A stretch of 64,000 nt of DNA from Minisyncoccota bacterium (GCA_035994985.1 DASYKZ010000007.1:15601-79600), one strand, 5' to 3'; shown: positions 18,395 through 59,221, counted from the stretch's first letter. Notes: generated by a model from the letters alone, not told the origin. Numbers and translations are program-made.

Positions 18395-18401
18395 ATGTTT
18401 G

Positions 18402-18784
18402 GTCTTGTGCCTATAAGCCGAATTTTGTCTTCCCTTGCGGGATAATGGCAATTTGTCTAGGCCCTAAATTACTTGAGGGCTCAAGCGATTCTCCCCGCAC
18501 ATAACTTTACACAACTTTATATACCTTATTAAACTAGAGATGTAGAGTTATGTGCGGGGCGCGATCTTGCACAGAGGTAAGGATTTAGCCGTTTCACCCT
18601 AGTGTTACCACTAGATTATTCCCGAAGGAACCCTAGCCTTTCGGCCTTGGCGTCTCTGTTCGCACCTATATATTGCTATACACGGGTATTACCCGCTACC
18701 ATTCCCAGTCCCTTCTGGAACTTCGCTGTGTTCGGACTTTCCTCTCTGAAATAAATCAGAGTAGCCATCCAGCATAAGACTAAT
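18402..18784 (-). ncRNA. rnpB: RNase P RNA (bacterial type A-like)
   Basis: The minus strand contains GAGGAAAGUCCG (P4 5'), the P3 hairpin cucugauuuauuucagag, AGGGUGAAACGG, GCUUGAGCC, the P18 GNRA hairpin ucccgcaaggga, and ACAAAAUUCGGCUUAUA (P4 3'). P1 pairing is agucuuaugc/gcacaagac. There is a long AU-rich insertion helix (ccccgcacauaacu…aguuaugugcgggg). Confidence 0.8.
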
Positions 18785-51606: not shown

Positions 51607-53775
51607 TTATTTGGCAATCTGCGTAGCTTCTTCGAATTTTACCGAGAGGAGCTTGGAGGCGCCGTCGGAGCCGACAGTAATCCCGTAGAGTACTCCGGCG
51701 CGGGACATCGTTTCCCTATTGTGGGTGACGACGACGAGCTGGGAATGCTTGGAAAGTTTTTCCAGCATATCACCGTACTTTCGGGAATTTGATTCATCAA
51801 GAGCGGCATCAGTCTCGTCCAATACCAAGAATGGGGGCGGGTTGACCTGCGACATGGCAAAAAGTATCGCTATAGAAGTGAGCGACCTCTCTCCTCCGGA
51901 GAGCGCCTGCAGCTCTTTGACCTTCTTGTGAGGCAGCGACACATTTATCTCTATCCCTTTTTCAAAGACTATTTCTTCATCTATTCCGGACTCTAGCTCC
52001 AGATCTTCATCCCTCTTTTTCCTTTTATTTTCCACCACGATAGACAAGGCCGCGTGTCCGCCGCCGAACATAAGCCGAAAGAACTCCTCGAATTCCACGT
52101 TTATTTTTTTAACGCCTTCCTTGAATTCTATATCGATTTTTTCCTTCAGGTCTTCTATGAGCTTCTCTAGGGACTCTATGCTCTTGGTCAGGTCTTCCAG
52201 CTCTTTCGCCAGAAACGCATCCCTCTGGAACACTTCTTCAAATTCTTTCATGATTTCCGCACCGCCGGAGAGACCAGCATCTTCGAGCTTTATTTTAATC
52301 CTTTCTATTTTTCGCCTTGTTTCTTCCTGCACAGTCCTGTCAGGTACGCCCTCGATAAGAACATTTTTATAGTCCAATATACCCCGCCCGATAAGTGCTG
52401 TACCTTCCTGTATCTCATTTTCAAATGCTTCTACCTCCCGATTCAAGTTTTCCTGCTTCACGGATAAAAGCTCTAAATGCGAAGTAAGCTCCTGCTGCTT
52501 AATTTTGTGGGTAAATTTCTCTCGCTCTTTGTCTCGCAGCGCTTCCATCTCTTCGTTTATTTCTGTTTTGAATTTTTCGGCGAGTTCGTTTTTTTCTTTT
52601 TCTTCCGTTTCCAGATTTTTTATTTCCGCCACAGTCTGCTCCTGTGAATCTTTCAATTCCGCGAGTTCCTTTTCCTCATTATGTATTTTCTCCATTTGCT
52701 CCGCTCCTTGTTCTTCTATGATACTGCCGCACATGGGGCAGCGGCCGGAGAGCTTTTCTTTGCTGATTCTGGATTCCAGTATTCCTTCAATGCGTCCCAG
52801 CTTCCGGTCGAGCTCGCCTTTTATTCTCCGGATTTCATTCAGCTTTTGCTCTATCGCACGCAGTTCGCCAATCTTTTTACTCTCTCCGCCTAAATCCGCA
52901 GTGTCAGATATTTTAAGATTTATATTTTTTAGTTCAGATTCTATTTTGGCTTTTTCTGCGGACAAATTCTTTTTCTCTTCGTCCAGATAGATGCTTTCTT
53001 TTTTTAGATAGTCCCTATATAAAGCGCCAAGCTCTTCCTGCATGACTTGGGCCTTTTCAAATTTTTCCACCTGCTTCCTTAAAAAATTCAAGTGCGGCGC
53101 ATTTTCACGGCGAAGCATGCCCACTTCTTTCATGTTCTCCCCGGTCCGCTCCAGCTTTCTTTCAGATTCTTTTATTTTGTATTGATAGACCTTGAGCCCG
53201 AGCGCGTCCTCCACCATTTCCCGCCTCTCCCGGGCGTTTGCATTTAAAATCCTGTCCGCTTCGCCTTGGGAAATGATATGATGCCCAGAGGAGCCGACGT
53301 TGACCGAAGACAAAAGATTGTGGATGTCTTTCAGGCGGACGTCTGTATTGTTTAAAATATATTTATTCAGGCCGTCCGGAAATACCTGTCTCGAAATACT
53401 GATGGTATCGTAGTTCAGGTCGACATTTTCTCCTGTATCATTGGTAAATTTAAAAACTTTGTCAGAATTATCGAAGTATACTGTCGCCGTGGCGCGGCTG
53501 CCTTTGGATAAATTTTTTGACCCCTTGAAAATGAGGTCTGTGCCGGAGCGTCCGCGCATGGATTTCATGGACTGCTCGCCCAAGACATACCGGAAAGCTT
53601 CCACTACGTTGGACTTGCCGGAGCCATTGGGGCCGACGATGCAAGTGATAGCGCTCCCAAACTCTAAAACGCTCTTATGAGCGAAAGATTTAAAGCCGTT
53701 TATTTCAAGTGTTTTGAGCCGCATAGTCCTTATATTACCATACTTAGTAGACTTCTTGCTGGTAACATTTTTCAC
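51607..53775 (-). CDS. smc: short SMC-family ATPase (chromosome condensation/segregation) with a CxxC zinc-hook-like motif in place of a canonical hinge; likely start is MRLKTL at 53724
   Basis: N-terminus 'MRLKTLEINGFKSFAHKSVLEFGSAITCIVGPNGSGKSNVVEAFRYVLGEQSMKSMRG'; C-terminus 'LSGGERSLTSIAILFAMSQVNPPPFLVLDETDAALDESN…VVVTHNRETM…LYGITV'; mid-molecule 'GRCPMCGS'. Only 722 aa. Confidence 0.75.
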   Translation of the reverse strand: MKNVTSKKSTKYGNIRTMRLKTLEINGFKSFAHKSVLEFGSAITCIVGPNGSGKSNVVEAFRYVLGEQSMKSMRGRSGTDLIFKGSKNLSKGSRATATVYFDNSDKVFKFTNDTGENVDLNYDTISISRQVFPDGLNKYILNNTDVRLKDIHNLLSSVNVGSSGHHIISQGEADRILNANARERREMVEDALGLKVYQYKIKESERKLERTGENMKEVGMLRRENAPHLNFLRKQVEKFEKAQVMQEELGALYRDYLKKESIYLDEEKKNLSAEKAKIESELKNINLKISDTADLGGESKKIGELRAIEQKLNEIRRIKGELDRKLGRIEGILESRISKEKLSGRCPMCGSIIEEQGAEQMEKIHNEEKELAELKDSQEQTVAEIKNLETEEKEKNELAEKFKTEINEEMEALRDKEREKFTHKIKQQELTSHLELLSVKQENLNREVEAFENEIQEGTALIGRGILDYKNVLIEGVPDRTVQEETRRKIERIKIKLEDAGLSGGAEIMKEFEEVFQRDAFLAKELEDLTKSIESLEKLIEDLKEKIDIEFKEGVKKINVEFEEFFRLMFGGGHAALSIVVENKRKKRDEDLELESGIDEEIVFEKGIEINVSLPHKKVKELQALSGGERSLTSIAILFAMSQVNPPPFLVLDETDAALDESNSRKYGDMLEKLSKHSQLVVVTHNRETMSRAGVLYGITVGSDGASKLLSVKFEEATQIAK

Positions 53776-55429
53776 AAAATACTATTTCCGGTCTTTCTGG
53801 TGCATAAGAAGTTTGGATGGACATTTTGCATTTATCACAATTCCTATTGTAAGTTTTCATTGGATTCATTTGAGCAATATGGGCACGGTCACGGGATAGT
53901 GGGCACTTTCTTGGTATAGGTAAATTAAATCTTTTCAAAAAAACTAACTCTTTTTGGATAATTTGATAATTTTTACCGCAGGTTTCGCATTTTAAAACCT
54001 CCTTAAGAATATTATCTTCTGTATCTTTTATGTGATCTGGTAATTTTATTGTTGCATCCAGATATTCTCGCGGGTCTGGGTCGCGCCAAGTAAAACCTTT
54101 AGCTAAGGCTTCCTCTTTTTTTATCGGGAAAAATTCAAACAAAGCAGATTCGTTGTAGGCCCATGAACAGAGATCGACTGGTACTTGCCCGCCGTAGCCA
54201 TGCTTTCTGCCAAGTTTGTCTATGAACGGCATTTCATTCATCTGTTTCTTTATTTTTTCTATCATTGGGAAATATTCTTCTTTAGTGTATTGCTTATTGA
54301 AAATACAATATGAAGCTTTATTTAAACCTACACATCCAAAAACATATTCACAGCTACTACAAGCAAACGTATATTCTGTTTCGTGATTACCATATCCCCA
54401 TATAGAAAACTTAACATGATTAGAGTTATTGCCAGTCCAAGTTACTTCATACATCAATTCCGAATTCTGGCCAAAATATGTATAGTCATAGCTATTTTTT
54501 ACTCCGCCCTGAATAAATAGCTGTGAGTGTTTTATATTTTCAGAATCAGAAACATAATAAACATCATTTGCATTGCGGCAATTGTACACATAATCGCCGG
54601 AAACATTATTATTGTTGCGCGTTTGAGCTGCGCGACGAGGATACTTTAGTGAAAGTTCATAAGCTTGTTTTCTAAATTTTTCTACATTATCCGGCGTACC
54701 TAATTCAAATTCTTTAATCTTACTTAAATATTCTTCCCGAGAATATTGTTGGTTAAAAATACAGTAACTTTTACTGCGGAGTGAAGTACAGCCAAAACAA
54801 TCATTGCAATTCACTAAATCTTTTGAAAAGTAGACATTGTGGCAATTTTCTAAATCCTGAGAATAAAAACACTGAAAGCAATTTCGTGCATCTACTACTT
54901 CATAACACGAGTCACAATCTGCGGAAAATGCTAAATCAAGACAGTTGGTAGTTCGTAATGCAAAGTTAGTATAGGCATTATCTTCACCGGTAATATGTCT
55001 AAAACAGAGGTATCCATTTTTTAAATAACTTACTGCGTTGCAATATTCGCTATTAGTAAGAGTCGCATAGTTGGTGTGAAGTGCCGCACGGGGTACATCT
55101 ATTAAAAGTTCTTTGTATTGCTCAAAAAATGTTCGAGTGAAATCATATTGTCTTCCATAACTTTTTGGGTCCCATTTATCGCTCCACCAAATATCTTGTC
55201 GATAAACTTTACCAGGGACATCGGGGTGGTAAAAAGTTATTATATTTTCGCCGGTAAAATCACACTTGCGTTTATATAATATTCTGTAAGAAAGCCAATT
55301 GAGCCTTCGCATAAGCCTGCACTCTGGACACCAAGTGGGTGGTGGCACTTTTATCATTTCATAAAATCCAAAATCATCTGGCTCAATCGTGAAATCTTTT
55401 TTACAATTTTGACAGATTTTGTTTTCCAT
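53744..55429 (-). CDS. Cys-rich repeat protein of unknown function with terminal zinc-ribbon-like motifs
   Basis: 561 aa. N-terminal 'CQNCKK…WCPECR'. Internal duplicated blocks 'NCNDCFGCTSLRSKSYCIFNQQYSREEY' and 'SCEYVFGCVGLNKASYCIFNKQYTKEEY'. Repeated 'NCxxxxFSxDL' units. C-terminal 'CETCGK…CDKCK…FCEKCY'. Confidence 0.6.
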   Translation of the reverse strand: MENKICQNCKKDFTIEPDDFGFYEMIKVPPPTWCPECRLMRRLNWLSYRILYKRKCDFTGENIITFYHPDVPGKVYRQDIWWSDKWDPKSYGRQYDFTRTFFEQYKELLIDVPRAALHTNYATLTNSEYCNAVSYLKNGYLCFRHITGEDNAYTNFALRTTNCLDLAFSADCDSCYEVVDARNCFQCFYSQDLENCHNVYFSKDLVNCNDCFGCTSLRSKSYCIFNQQYSREEYLSKIKEFELGTPDNVEKFRKQAYELSLKYPRRAAQTRNNNNVSGDYVYNCRNANDVYYVSDSENIKHSQLFIQGGVKNSYDYTYFGQNSELMYEVTWTGNNSNHVKFSIWGYGNHETEYTFACSSCEYVFGCVGLNKASYCIFNKQYTKEEYFPMIEKIKKQMNEMPFIDKLGRKHGYGGQVPVDLCSWAYNESALFEFFPIKKEEALAKGFTWRDPDPREYLDATIKLPDHIKDTEDNILKEVLKCETCGKNYQIIQKELVFLKRFNLPIPRKCPLSRDRAHIAQMNPMKTYNRNCDKCKMSIQTSYAPERPEIVFCEKCYQQEVY

Positions 55430-55430
55430 T

Positions 55431-56126
55431 TTAATCGAGCCAATTTTTTGCTTTTAAAGCGGCAGTCGCCGCGCTTACTTCCGCTTCCTGTTTGGACTTG
55501 CCTTTGCCCTCCGCAATCAAACTCGAGGCAAAGAAAATTCCTACGGTAAAATGCTTGTCGTGGTCGGGGCCGGATTCGCTCAAGACCTTGTATTGGGGCG
55601 TAGTCTGGAGAAATTCCTGCGCTTTTTCCTGCACCAAGCTTTTTGCGTCCCGCCACAATTTCTTTTTTACTATTTCGTCAGTTTTAGGCAGAAGATTTTC
55701 ATGCAAAAATTTGTCTACCACGGCATATCCTTGGTCCAAATACATCGCGCCGATATATGCTTCATATGTGTTGGCCAAGATATACTGCCTCGCCTTGCCG
55801 TGGTCTTTGGCTTCGCCCCGGGACAAAAGCAGATAGTCATTCATCCCGGCCTTGAGGGCAACATCGGAAATGATGATGGCGTTCACGAGGGCGGAGCGGA
55901 CTGCCGTCAATTCCCCTTCGGTATAGCCCGGATATTTTTTATATAGAAAATCCGTAACGATGAGTTCAAGCACGGCATCGCCCAAAAATTCCAAACGCTC
56001 GTTGTGCGAAAGCCCCGTGCTTCCGTTTTCATTTATATACGAACGGTGGATAAACGCCTGCTTGAGCAAATTTTTATCCTTAAAAAATATTTTTGTTTTT
56101 TCTTCAAAACCTGAAAAGTTAATCAT
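55431..56126 (-). CDS. rnc: ribonuclease III
   Basis: Catalytic signature 'ERLEFLGDAVLELIVTDFLY'; C-terminal dsRBD. Confidence 0.9.
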   Translation of the reverse strand: MINFSGFEEKTKIFFKDKNLLKQAFIHRSYINENGSTGLSHNERLEFLGDAVLELIVTDFLYKKYPGYTEGELTAVRSALVNAIIISDVALKAGMNDYLLLSRGEAKDHGKARQYILANTYEAYIGAMYLDQGYAVVDKFLHENLLPKTDEIVKKKLWRDAKSLVQEKAQEFLQTTPQYKVLSESGPDHDKHFTVGIFFASSLIAEGKGKSKQEAEVSAATAALKAKNWLD

Positions 56127-56147: not shown

Positions 56148-57077
56148 TTATTTCTCTTCCGAACTAATAATCTGTATCGCTTTTTCGATAATCGGGAGCA
56201 TGTCGCTGTAAATGCGAAGTTCGGCTATGTTTGAGAGGGGAAACCATCTCGCGCCGTCTAGACCGCCGGATTTCTCCAGTTCTAGCTCTTTGTATTTGCT
56301 TTTACCCAGAAAATACACCACCTTCTTCAAAGTCTTTCCCGTGGTCGGGTGGGTGGCCACATATTCATTTTCTCCCAATTTTTCTAATAGTTCGATATCC
56401 AAGCCTATTTCTTTTTTGATGGCCCGCTTTGTGCCTTCTTCCAAAGTTTCACTCGTGTCAATTTTTCCCTTGGAAAGAGTCCAGTAGCCGAAAACATCGT
56501 GAACAAAAGCAAACAAAATATCTTCGCCTTGTTTTGCATACACCAAAGCGCCGCCCAGTTTTTCCACTTCAAGCTTGGTTATATCTACGGGCTCTTCAGA
56601 TTTTTTATTCACCTTACTTTTTTGCTCTTTGCCCGGCTCGCCTATCTCCTTGTATACCGCACCGAGTACCCCGTTTACAAACTTGCTGGAATTTTCTCCG
56701 CCGAAAGTTTTCGCCAGTTCTATCGCTTCGTTGATAGCCACCTTTGGAGGCACCTGAGCCCTGTCGCCAAACAGAAGCTCGTACAGCCCGAGCCGGAGGA
56801 TATTCCTATCAACGATAGATATCTTGTCGATAGGCCAGTCCGGCGCAGCTTTTTCTATAATCTCATCAATAACAAAGCGGTTTTTCAATATTTCACTTAT
56901 AAGAGAAAAGACAAAGTTGTCATCTTCCAGCCCCGGAGCGAATTCCTTTAAATTCCTCTTTGCCGCTTCTTTTATATATTCAAGTATAGTGCTTTCGTTC
57001 TTTTTTTCATCAGAAAGAAAATCCCACTCAAAAAGAGTTTGGAGTACTATTGATCTTGAGAGGTGCCTATTTGCCAT
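56148..57077 (-). CDS. nusB: fusion: transcription antitermination factor NusB domain + C-terminal NUDIX hydrolase domain
   Basis: NusB-like 'RHLSRSIVLQTLFEWDF…RNILRLGLYELLF…KFVNGVLGAVYK'. Nudix-box-like 'GKIDTSETLEEGTKRAIKKEIGL' after 'GGALVYAKQGEDILFAFVH'. Confidence 0.7.
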   Translation of the reverse strand: MANRHLSRSIVLQTLFEWDFLSDEKKNESTILEYIKEAAKRNLKEFAPGLEDDNFVFSLISEILKNRFVIDEIIEKAAPDWPIDKISIVDRNILRLGLYELLFGDRAQVPPKVAINEAIELAKTFGGENSSKFVNGVLGAVYKEIGEPGKEQKSKVNKKSEEPVDITKLEVEKLGGALVYAKQGEDILFAFVHDVFGYWTLSKGKIDTSETLEEGTKRAIKKEIGLDIELLEKLGENEYVATHPTTGKTLKKVVYFLGKSKYKELELEKSGGLDGARWFPLSNIAELRIYSDMLPIIEKAIQIISSEEK

Positions 57078-57149: not shown

Positions 57150-57383
57150 TTAGTTATTTGCTGCTGTTGCAGTCTTCGCTTTAGCTTTCTTTTGCTTCTT
57201 TTCAAGCTTGGCTACCACATCCAAAACTTTCTTTCCCCGGTAAAAACCGCATACCGAACACACCGTGTGCCGCCTCTTTAAAGCCTGGCAGTTTGTACAC
57301 TTGGTAAAACTTGTGCTCGCAAGCGCGTGGTGAGAGCGGCGATTTTTCGTATGCGATTTTGTATGCCTCATTCGTACTACCAT
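57150..57383 (-). CDS. rpmF: 50S ribosomal protein L32 with C-terminal Lys/Ala-rich tail
   Basis: 'HTKNRRSHHALA…CTNC…CSVCGFYRGKKV'. Confidence 0.8.
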   Translation of the reverse strand: MVVRMRHTKSHTKNRRSHHALASTSFTKCTNCQALKRRHTVCSVCGFYRGKKVLDVVAKLEKKQKKAKAKTATAANN

Positions 57384-57466: not shown

Positions 57467-59221
57467 ATGGATAAAGCTGAAAAACTGAACAATATGAGGC
57501 ACACGTTCGCACATCTGCTCGCCGCTGCAGTCGGAGAAATATACAAATTTGATAAGGTAAAATTGACCTTGGGGCCGGCTATAGAAAACGGTTTCTATTA
57601 TGATATTGATTTCGGAGATGAAAAAATATCGAATACTGACCTAAAAAAAATTGAAGAAAAGATGCGCAAGATTTTGCCCAAATGGAAAGAATTTACGCAT
57701 AAAGAGATGAACAAAGAAGAAGCCTTGGATTTTTTCAAGAACGAATACAAAGCAGAGCTGATAAATGAAATAGCCGAACGCGGCGAAAAAATAACTACAT
57801 ATACCTGTGGAGGGTTTACAGATTTGTGCCGTGGCGGACACTTAGAACACCCTGCTGAAGAGATAAGTCCGGAAGCATTCAAGCTCGACCGTGTGGCCGG
57901 AGCATATTGGCGCGGGGATGAAAAAAATAAAATGCTTACACGCATATATGGACTTGCGTTTGAAACCAAAGAAGAACTGGACGCGTATATAACAGAGCGC
58001 ATTGAAGCGGAAAAAAGAGACCATCGTGAACTCGGTAAAAAATTAGAGCTTTTTACTTTTGATGAAGAAATTGGAAAAGGACTGCCTATCTGGCTGCCGA
58101 AAGGAAATATAATCAAAGAAGAATTGGAAAATTGGGCAAAAGAAACTGAAAGAAAGTGGGATTACCAAAGAGTGACCACTCCAATAATTACCAAAGAGAA
58201 CTTGTTTTATACTTCCGGACACCTGCCTCTCTATAAAGACAGCATGTACGCCCCGATTTCCATTGAAGATGAAAACTATTATATAAAGCCCATGAATTGT
58301 CCTTTTCATCATAAAGTTTTTTCGGCGCTGCCTAGGACTTACAAAGAACTCCCTTTGCGTTTAGCTGAGTATGGGTGGTGCCATAGATATGAGGATTCTG
58401 GCAGTTTATTTGGACTCATGAGGGTGCGAGGGATGCAGATGAACGATGCGCATATATATGTAACTCCTGAACAAGCAATAAAAGAGTTTGTAGATGTTAT
58501 AAAACTTCACGAATATTACTATAAAATTTTAGGCATTGAAAAGTATGAAATGGAGCTATCGTTAAGAGACCCAAAAAATCTAGACAAATACCATGGAGAA
58601 GAATCAGATTGGAAACTAGCCGAAGAAATGACAATAAAAGCCATGGAGCTTTCTGGCGTGCCATTTAAAATCGTCCATGAAGGCGCGGCCTTTTATGGGC
58701 CAAAAATGGACTTTCAAATATACTCCTCTATTGGACGCTCGTTTACAGCCTCTACCAACCAGCTTGATTTATACATGGGAAAAAGATTTAAGCTTGAATA
58801 TACAGACAAGGATGGGACAAAAAAAATACCGTATGTCATTCATAGGGCCCCACTTGGAACTCATGAAAGATTTATTGGATTTTTGATAGAACATTTTGCA
58901 GGCGCCTTCCCTCTCTGGCTTTCTTCTGTGCAGGTAAAAATAATCCCTGTGCGTACAGGCCACAACGAATACGCAAAAGAAGTTTTTGAAATGCTGAAAG
59001 AACATAATATCCGGGCGGAGCTGGACGATGCCGATGAAAACCTCGGCACAAAAGTCCGGGACGCTAAAAATAATAAGCTCCCCTATTGGGTAGTCATCGG
59101 CGACAAAGAGATAGAAGCTGATAAAATCACGCTTGAGTCTCGGGACTCCGGCAATCTTGGACAGATGCCGAAAGAAGAACTCCTTAAAAAATTATTAGAG
59201 GAAATTAAAGATAAGAAATAA
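57467..59221 (+). CDS. thrS: threonyl-tRNA synthetase lacking the N-terminal TGS (N1) domain
   Basis: Begins at the editing/SAD region 'RHTFAHLLAAAV' (HxxxH). Class II motifs 'YHRYEDSGSLFGLMRVRGMQMNDAHIY' and a C-terminal anticodon-binding domain. Confidence 0.9.
   Translation: MDKAEKLNNMRHTFAHLLAAAVGEIYKFDKVKLTLGPAIENGFYYDIDFGDEKISNTDLKKIEEKMRKILPKWKEFTHKEMNKEEALDFFKNEYKAELINEIAERGEKITTYTCGGFTDLCRGGHLEHPAEEISPEAFKLDRVAGAYWRGDEKNKMLTRIYGLAFETKEELDAYITERIEAEKRDHRELGKKLELFTFDEEIGKGLPIWLPKGNIIKEELENWAKETERKWDYQRVTTPIITKENLFYTSGHLPLYKDSMYAPISIEDENYYIKPMNCPFHHKVFSALPRTYKELPLRLAEYGWCHRYEDSGSLFGLMRVRGMQMNDAHIYVTPEQAIKEFVDVIKLHEYYYKILGIEKYEMELSLRDPKNLDKYHGEESDWKLAEEMTIKAMELSGVPFKIVHEGAAFYGPKMDFQIYSSIGRSFTASTNQLDLYMGKRFKLEYTDKDGTKKIPYVIHRAPLGTHERFIGFLIEHFAGAFPLWLSSVQVKIIPVRTGHNEYAKEVFEMLKEHNIRAELDDADENLGTKVRDAKNNKLPYWVVIGDKEIEADKITLESRDSGNLGQMPKEELLKKLLEEIKDKK

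Follow-up and report, generated by a model that had tools for sequence, protein, structure and literature searches.

NusB, among the most thoroughly studied transcription factors, is known as a small protein that stands alone: the classical members from Escherichia coli, Thermotoga maritima (1TZT) and Aquifex (3R2C) are ~140 amino acids (aa) long, and we know of no model organism in which NusB carries an extra domain. Here we describe a gene in which a full-length NusB of 146 residues is followed by a linker and a 138-aa domain of the Nudix superfamily; it lies in a 64,000-nucleotide (nt) stretch of a Minisyncoccota bacterium genome (GCA_035994985.1 DASYKZ010000007.1:15601-79600), the whole of which is called the window below, and its product is called the window protein. 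In the RsmB/Sun 16S rRNA methyltransferases, a NusB-fold N terminus and a C-terminal domain of another fold are likewise joined in one rRNA-directed protein, the C-terminal domain there being a methyltransferase, not a Nudix domain. Among Nudix proteins, Aquifex aeolicus aq_158 (3I7U/3I7V), a stand-alone Ap4A hydrolase of 134 aa, was found in a 2026 study to free RNA 5′ ends of triphosphates, diphosphates and m7G, NAD, FAD, Np4 and sugar caps; it was given the new name 'Omnivore RNA pyrophosphatase', and E51A abolishes its activity (PMC13145063). The human Ap4A hydrolase NUDT2 (1XSA, 4IJX) trims 5′-triphosphorylated RNA (pppRNA) and is inactivated by E58A (PMC8616924), and its Tyr87 is a specificity residue for diadenosine polyphosphates (ApnA) (PMC5389931). 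Non-catalytic Nudix domains are a recognised class that comprises NUDT21 (CFIm25), an RNA-processing factor with the box RLxxEI, and transcriptional regulators such as NrtR, whose Nudix domain senses ADP-ribose (PMC5389931). Our full-text literature searches returned nothing relevant on NusB-Nudix fusions, on NusB in bacteria of the candidate phyla radiation or on inactive Nudix fusions, and the review of the Nudix clan does not mention NusB. The reading we favour for the window protein, to which we give an even chance, is that its Nudix domain would be brought in by NusB to bind nucleotide polyphosphates or RNA 5′ ends, or to serve as a docking module for them, largely without hydrolysis.

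The first-pass annotation had placed a NusB-NUDIX fusion at 56148 to 57077 and had given no strand. The interval corresponded exactly to a single uninterrupted open reading frame (ORF) of 309 aa, ATG start and stop included, on the minus strand; the plus-strand frame, which has many stops, was ruled out. Both peptides quoted in that annotation were found in the translation (RHLSRSIVLQTLFEWDF, residues 4 to 20, and GKIDTSETLEEGTKRAIKKEIGL, residues 204 to 226), and the fusion itself was borne out by the profile search it had proposed: in the one ORF, PF01029 NusB matched residues 7 to 143 (E = 7e-36; 123.9 bits, cut-off 23.1) and PF00293 NUDIX matched residues 177 to 298 (E = 1.4e-12; 48.2 bits, gathering cut-off 21.1). 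Public databases hold an identical protein (P0001), annotated as NusB, from a Paceibacterota metagenome-assembled genome. Origin of the fusion by frameshift or misassembly was ruled out, because the same ORF was continuous in 80 of 80 loci and both Pfam domains were present in all 240 homologues listed. In a profile search of all ORFs of at least 60 aa, no further NusB or Nudix gene was found in the window.

The N-terminal domain is a bona fide and highly canonical member of the NusB family. It scored 125.3 bits against the NCBIfam nusB equivalog TIGR01951 (cut-off, 88.35), with residues 4 to 144 covering profile positions 2 to 130 of 131, and its best PDB sequence match was T. maritima NusB (1TZT; E = 3e-21). 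Matches to RsmB were weak (53.7 bits versus a cut-off of 319), the domain being a true NusB and not an RsmB variant. In E. coli NusB, Y18 (altered in nusB5) belongs to the NusE interface, D118 (nusB101) and F122 serve BoxA binding, and F122 is required for cellular and lambda antitermination (PMC3177189). These three residues aligned with F16, N129 and F133 of the window protein; F133 was present in 39 of 39 fusion representatives, N135 and G136 were conserved at 95% or more, and the motif VPPKVAINEAIELAKTFGGENSSKFVNGVL is nearly identical to that of E. coli NusB. Judged by its profile score and these residues, the gene product would be a functional NusB, that is, a factor that binds BoxA RNA and NusE and nucleates rRNA antitermination complexes.

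The two domains are joined by a Lys/Glu-rich linker (EPGKEQKSKVNKKSEEPVDITKLEV). AlphaFold2 was run twice on the fusion, with alignments of 36 and 81 sequences (mean predicted local distance difference test [pLDDT], 80.6 and 90.6, respectively). The NusB part was modeled as helices over residues 2 to 145 (pLDDT, ~90 to 97) and the Nudix part as an alpha/beta fold, its strands beginning at residue 170 and its C-terminal helix spanning residues 291 to 308 (pLDDT mostly 93 to 98), while pLDDT fell below 50 at residues 148 to 162 in one run and 150 to 162 in the other. The predicted template modeling score (pTM) was only 0.49 and 0.54 despite both domains being confident; with the disordered linker, this means that NusB and Nudix are predicted as independent beads on a Lys/Glu-rich tether. 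Fixed interdomain packing or autoinhibition was unsupported, as the pTM stayed low and the linker disordered even with the deeper alignment. Representatives of the family differed in total length, the shortest having 287 aa and the longest 358.

The C-terminal domain belongs to the Nudix superfamily and, by sequence and by fold, to its ApnA-hydrolase-like branch. The nearest solved proteins in phmmer searches were aq_158 (3I7U; E = 1.7e-8), the Ap6A hydrolase Ndx1 of Thermus and human NUDT2. Foldseek likewise ranked 3I7U first (target-normalised TM-score, 0.87; 27% identity), ahead of 1VC8 (0.83) and 1KTG (0.75); after 3I7U came the mycobacterial MutT1/Rv2985 ApnA-ases, the NrtR Nudix domain (3GZ8, within the top 10), Ndx1, the Caenorhabditis elegans and human Ap4A hydrolases and Chlamydia CT771. 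Leading matches by sequence and fold together were 3I7U, 1VC8, 1XSA/4ICK, 1KTG, CT771 and mycobacterial MutT1. No named enzyme family of NCBIfam could be given to the stand-alone Nudix relatives, whose scores were all far under the cut-offs. With NrtR and NUDT21 the fusion shares a Nudix fold that is kept while box glutamates are replaced; it shows no detectable specific sequence relationship to them, and the NusB partner and the flexible tether are peculiar to it.

Set against the consensus G-x5-E-x7-R-E-U-x-E-E-x-G-U, the Nudix box of the window protein is degenerate. It runs from G204 through KIDTS to E210 and through TLEEGTK to R218, followed by Ala219, Ile, Lys, Lys222, Glu223, Ile, G225 and L226; the first and second glutamates of REUxEE are thus Ala219 and Lys222, and only the last, E223, is kept, so that the box lacks two of the three metal-ligand glutamates of a complete catalytic Nudix box. 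The window protein shares with aq_158 the W-x-x-x-K-G motif, the box framework and the last box Glu (E51 in aq_158, E223 here) and differs from it in having RAIKKE in place of REVWEE. It also has Gly272 opposite the Glu of 'SWE' in the Aquifex enzyme and of 'SHE' in the human one (HMMER alignment); this Glu was nearly invariant among the closest stand-alone Nudix relatives, while Gly occupied the position (the Glu position before W278) in 335 of 342 fusions, with Glu retained in some deep-branching ones. Wild-type human NUDT2, from the same sub-branch, is active with RETQEE, and HMMER placed Ala219 opposite the Ala engineered into its mutant structure 1XSA at native E58, which is residue 63 of the chain. 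Human Tyr87, the ApnA-specificity residue ~17 positions after the box, was paired by HMMER with His243 (226+17), and in the Aquifex alignment a Tyr was paired with the conserved Y239.

The first-pass annotation had proposed a nucleotide-diphosphate hydrolase and had named loss of the catalytic glutamates as what would speak against it; such loss is largely what we found in this protein. With its RAIKKE box and Gly272, the hydrolase reading is seriously doubtful for the window protein, and its Nudix domain is, from these substitutions, most likely hydrolytically dead or severely crippled. The suggested connection to RNA 5′ ends or to ApnA alarmones fared better and is reasonable at the level of the family, given that aq_158 removes ppp, NAD and Np4 caps; it is hydrolysis by this member that is in doubt.

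The main rival, itself rather unlikely, is an active, tethered pyrophosphohydrolase of the RppH, 'Omnivore' or Ap4A-hydrolase type, which NusB would position on the rRNA leader; there it would leave nascent pre-rRNA with a 5′ monophosphate in place of the ppp, Np4 or NAD end and license 5′-end-dependent processing, or it would clear ApnA locally. The PF00293 score above cut-off and the intact box residues G204, E210, R218, E223, G225 and L226 agree with it, as do the activities of its relatives, since the best of them, aq_158, removes many protecting groups from RNA 5′ ends (PMC13145063) and pppRNA is a substrate of NUDT2, from the same branch (PMC8616924); a role in rRNA processing also fits the conserved operon with RNase III that is described below. 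However, in the window protein Ala and Lys replace two of the three box glutamates, Gly replaces the downstream Glu, and a single E-to-A change at the equivalent position kills NUDT2 (PMC8616924).

The family as a whole was then considered in a pool of 342 distinct full-length fusion proteins, a sample biased toward the order of the window protein. The triad at positions 219, 222 and 223 was E-E-E in 129 proteins (38%), A-K-E, the state of the window protein, in 69, K-E-E in 39 and E-K-E in 29, with 29 rarer combinations. Position 219 was occupied by Glu in 171, Ala in 76 and Lys in 43 proteins, and position 222 by Glu in 203 and Lys in 113, with E223 present in 336. When the 131 Nudix positions were ranked by entropy-based conservation, position 219 was 109th, position 222 was 79th and position 223 was 8th; the top eight were W199, Y290, D194, K203, W278, T200, G176 and E223, and W199, Y290, D194, K203, W278, T200 and Y239 were nearly invariant. 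In the motif that precedes the box (W199-T200-L-S-K203-G204), W was present in 39 of 39 and K in 38 of 39 fusion representatives.

Canonical and degenerate states alternated between close relatives. Members of a pair disagreed in 26% of pairs that were 85 to 90% identical elsewhere in the sequence and in 41% of pairs that were 80 to 85% identical, 47% being expected at random, and a neighbour-joining tree required at least 67 switches of triad state versus 103 ± 4 after shuffling, a count that is probably an overestimate if the tree is noisy. The 14 nearest relatives of the window protein were all A-K-E or S-K-E. Among representatives at 50% identity, the canonical triad was kept in 6 of 39 fusions versus 15 of the 18 closest stand-alone Nudix proteins (Fisher P = 1.3e-6), and of the three stand-alone proteins with a non-canonical triad, two resemble fusion genes that were split or truncated. 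These two (P0124 and P0139) are 141 to 149 aa long, are 46 to 51% identical to the fusion Nudix domain and have degenerate boxes and a fusion-like 'GGLD' motif; they may be fission products of fusion genes or truncated gene calls. For an active enzyme, the full Glu triad in 129 of the 342 fusions and the near-invariance of E223 count in its favor, but the catalytic positions are among the least constrained of the domain and flip between near-identical proteins, which is unlike the active-site residues of an enzyme under selection, and all 14 of the nearest relatives share the AKE or SKE state.

The two variable positions showed a pattern of paired charges. Lys or Arg was present at 219 or 222 in 168 of the 213 degenerate members; within this part of the box (56412 to 56423 in the window), Ala219 occurred with Lys222 in 69 proteins versus with Glu222 in 6, and Lys or Arg at 219 occurred with Glu222 in 50. 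The positions are separated by three residues in a predicted helix, and such charge pairing there speaks for a salt bridge or for a Lys that mimics the metal over random drift; the Lys or Arg may provide a built-in positive charge that stands in for Mg2+. No compensating catalytic residue was found among five other well-conserved positions, the residue make-up at H193, Y198, H243, K248 and D274 being the same whatever the triad state.

The Nudix domain is under purifying selection as strong as that on NusB. Over 120 pairs, the median dN/dS (NG86) was 0.13 for Nudix, 0.12 for NusB and 0.14 for the linker, with dS in these pairs at ~1.2 to 1.5 and thus near saturation, and 24 positions within residues 172 to 309 were invariant across 81 sequences that were 50 to 80% identical to the window protein. 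Loss of canonical active-site residues is what would be seen if the domain were an evolutionary relic, a functionless and decaying remnant of an old fusion. That explanation is extremely improbable: the dN/dS value is like that of NusB, pLDDT is 93 to 98 over most of the domain and the ORF is intact in at least 522 species genomes, and a decaying relic is effectively refuted by the dN/dS and the invariant positions. On the simplest reading, selection keeps the fold and the non-catalytic residues and not hydrolysis.

The domain identities, the tether, the missing catalytic residues and the purifying selection are observed, as are the clade-wide distribution and the operon described below; what we infer is that the protein is non-catalytic, a module that probably binds its ligand instead of cutting it, and what that ligand or partner may be. 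A flexible tether of ~25 residues links the C terminus of NusB to a Nudix domain of the ApnA-hydrolase or RNA 5′-pyrophosphatase type, in which the set of metal-binding glutamates is broken in the window protein and its near relatives; strong selection maintains the domain, in the favored reading for a non-hydrolytic role. Candidate ligands would be ApnA, nucleoside triphosphates or the ppp- or Np4-capped 5′ end of the nascent pre-rRNA leader, itself bound by NusB through BoxA, and NusB would bring the Nudix module to the site of rRNA transcription and processing, beside RNase III. Ligand binding is favored because of the descent from ApnA and RNA-5′-end pyrophosphatases and because the W-T-x-x-K-G motif, E223 and conserved Lys and Tyr residues are kept. 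A more specific version, which we hold to be unlikely as it stands, is that the tethered Nudix domain would act as a 'reader' of nucleoside-polyphosphate status, either at the 5′ end of the nascent pre-rRNA leader (ppp, Np4 or NAD cap) or in free alarmones of the ApnA type, coupled to the assembly of antitermination and RNase III complexes in Patescibacteria, members with REUxEE also processing the 5′ end.

With invariant residues at many surface and core positions and catalytic ones that can be dispensed with, the domain might also be a pure protein-protein scaffold, in which the Nudix fold would be a structural or docking part of the patescibacterial machinery for antitermination and rRNA maturation without a small-molecule or 5′-end ligand. 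The inositol monophosphatase SuhB serves structurally in the rrn antitermination complex of E. coli and offers a comparison. The flexible tether and the fixed operon with rpmF and rnc would agree with a scaffold, and an acidic domain would suit basic ribosomal or RNA-binding proteins, which fits better than broad RNA binding. However, the W-T-x-x-K-G motif, E223 and Lys251 are among the most conserved residues, and we take these, by their sequence position, to lie on the substrate-binding side of ApnA hydrolases such as the C. elegans and human enzymes; this conservation pattern suggests a retained ligand pocket over a new interface, and no partner was identified. We consider a pure scaffold quite improbable.

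Several observations weigh against the largely non-hydrolysing module that we favor. A perfect REUxEE box in 38% of the fusions, together with the near-invariant E223, means that catalysis may persist in part of the family; the equivalent of E223 in aq_158, E51, is essential to that enzyme (PMC13145063). Weak or altered chemistry may occur even in the window protein, by analogy with the GDP-mannose mannosyl hydrolases, which are catalytic with RLxxAE, the same positions being lost and only the last Glu of the box kept (PMC5389931); this precedent also speaks for the active-enzyme alternative. The Nudix domain is acidic (median isoelectric point, 5.1; net charge, about −2 in the window protein), and extensive binding of the RNA backbone is therefore not favored; a general RNA-binding surface like that of CFIm25 was disfavored for this reason. 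The noisy tree and the near-saturated dS mentioned above count on the same side. No ligand, partner or BoxA element was identified, and Rfam searches found no rRNA operon or BoxA in the 64-kb window.

The first-pass annotation had called the fusion unusual; within its clade it is not rare, occurs in more than 2,000 protein clusters and is the standard form of the gene, and the survey of its taxonomic distribution which that annotation had suggested showed it to be clade-wide. In a first protein search, the 120 best homologues (at least 73% identical) all carried both domains. A profile built from distant fusion members matched 2,243 proteins at E ≤ 1e-10; again all of the best 120 carried both domains, and the named matches among these were all Patescibacteria, Paceibacterota or Nomurabacteria. 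In a scan of one genome per GTDB species, at least 522 stretches encoded a relative, and the neighbors were examined at the best 80 loci, at which the informative labels were Patescibacteria with one exception. The exception (L052; JAMPXW010000001.1, a contig of 276,871 bp) has a NusB-Nudix gene of 70% identity under the title 'Burkholderiales bacterium' and is probably a mis-binned or mislabeled Patescibacteria contig. The name 'uncultured Candidatus Saccharibacteria', given to many third-party (TPA) assemblies with the fusion gene, seems to be generic. With the Nudix domain by itself as the query, an exhaustive HMMER search returned only 919 cluster representatives at E ≤ 1e-3, among them stand-alone proteins of ~140 to 150 aa and ~38 full-length fusions; because these fusions reach down to 29% identity, the fusion is old.

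The gene order is rpmF–nusB-nudix–rnc–smc wherever the flanks are on the contig. At the best 80 loci, RNase III was encoded downstream in 80, ribosomal protein L32 immediately upstream in 77 and SMC downstream in 75; neighbors were absent only where a contig end lay near the fusion gene. The nusB gene of E. coli, by comparison, stands in the context ribH-nusB. In the window, 72 nt separate the end of rpmF from the start of the fusion gene, and 21 nt separate its stop from the start of rnc. Coordinates of the features are collected in Table 1.

Other observations concern the surroundings of the operon. Between rnc and smc, and overlapping the smc start by 32 nt, lies an ORF for a Cys-rich protein of 561 aa with many CxxC pairs, which has no Pfam or NCBIfam match; because a homologue was found at the same position in only 1 of the 80 related loci, this ORF seems to have been inserted, specifically in this lineage, into an operon whose order is otherwise fixed. 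The 'SMC' encoded next is 722 aa long versus a profile length of 1181, scores 493 bits, under the SMC equivalog cut-off of 567, and matches in two stretches with part of the middle of the profile unmatched; its central CPMC motif (within SGRCPMCGS) resembles a Rad50-type zinc hook, and the gene may encode a short form of SMC/Rad50-like protein that is characteristic of the clade. On the opposite strand, a divergent threonyl-tRNA synthetase of 584 aa has the SAD, class II core and anticodon-binding domains in Pfam, with no N-terminal TGS domain reported. Rfam also recorded three tRNAs, no rRNA and a bacterial class A RNase P RNA barely over the gathering score (111 versus 100 bits) in the window.

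Table 1. Positions of the NusB-Nudix gene, its parts and other features in the window
Feature	Coordinates	Strand	Basis or remark
nusB-nudix, complete ORF	56148..57077	−	309 aa plus stop codon (56148-56150); Pfam NusB and NUDIX
NusB domain, residues 1-146, all-helical	56640..57077	−	PF01029, TIGR01951, 1TZT match, AlphaFold2 model
Lys/Glu-rich flexible linker, residues 147-171 (EPGKEQKSKVNKKSEEPVDITKLEV)	56565..56639	−	Translation, low pLDDT
Nudix-fold domain, residues 172-309, ApnA-hydrolase/aq_158 type	56151..56564	−	PF00293, Foldseek, phmmer
Degenerate Nudix box GKIDTSETLEEGTKRAIKKEIGL, residues 204-226, RAIKKE replacing REUxEE	56400..56468	−	Translation, family statistics
rpmF (ribosomal protein L32), upstream neighbor	57150..57383	−	PF01783, E = 3e-15
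rnc (RNase III), downstream neighbor	55431..56126	−	PF14622, PF00636, dsrm
Cys-rich ORF	53744..55429	−	561 aa
'SMC'	51607..53775	−	722 aa
Threonyl-tRNA synthetase	57467..59221	+	584 aa
RNase P RNA, bacterial class A	18398..18780	−	Rfam

NusB-Nudix is a solid, clade-wide architecture with a clear pseudo-enzyme signature, undescribed in the literature searched; its proteins are already in the databases, auto-annotated simply as NusB. In an rRNA-related operon beside RNase III it has become fixed across a very large clade of bacteria that are ultra-small and uncultivated, and the fusion is a concrete handle on the organisation of rRNA transcription and processing in Patescibacteria. With catalytic glutamates that are optional and a remainder that is tightly conserved, the domain would offer a clean natural case of the passage from an enzyme fold to a binding or regulatory module. 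Should the domain prove a mere scaffold or an enzyme of weak activity, the result is a useful correction of annotation and no more; if it does read the state of 5′ ends or of alarmones, it would join antitermination by Nus factors with non-canonical RNA capping or ApnA signaling, a link previously undescribed.

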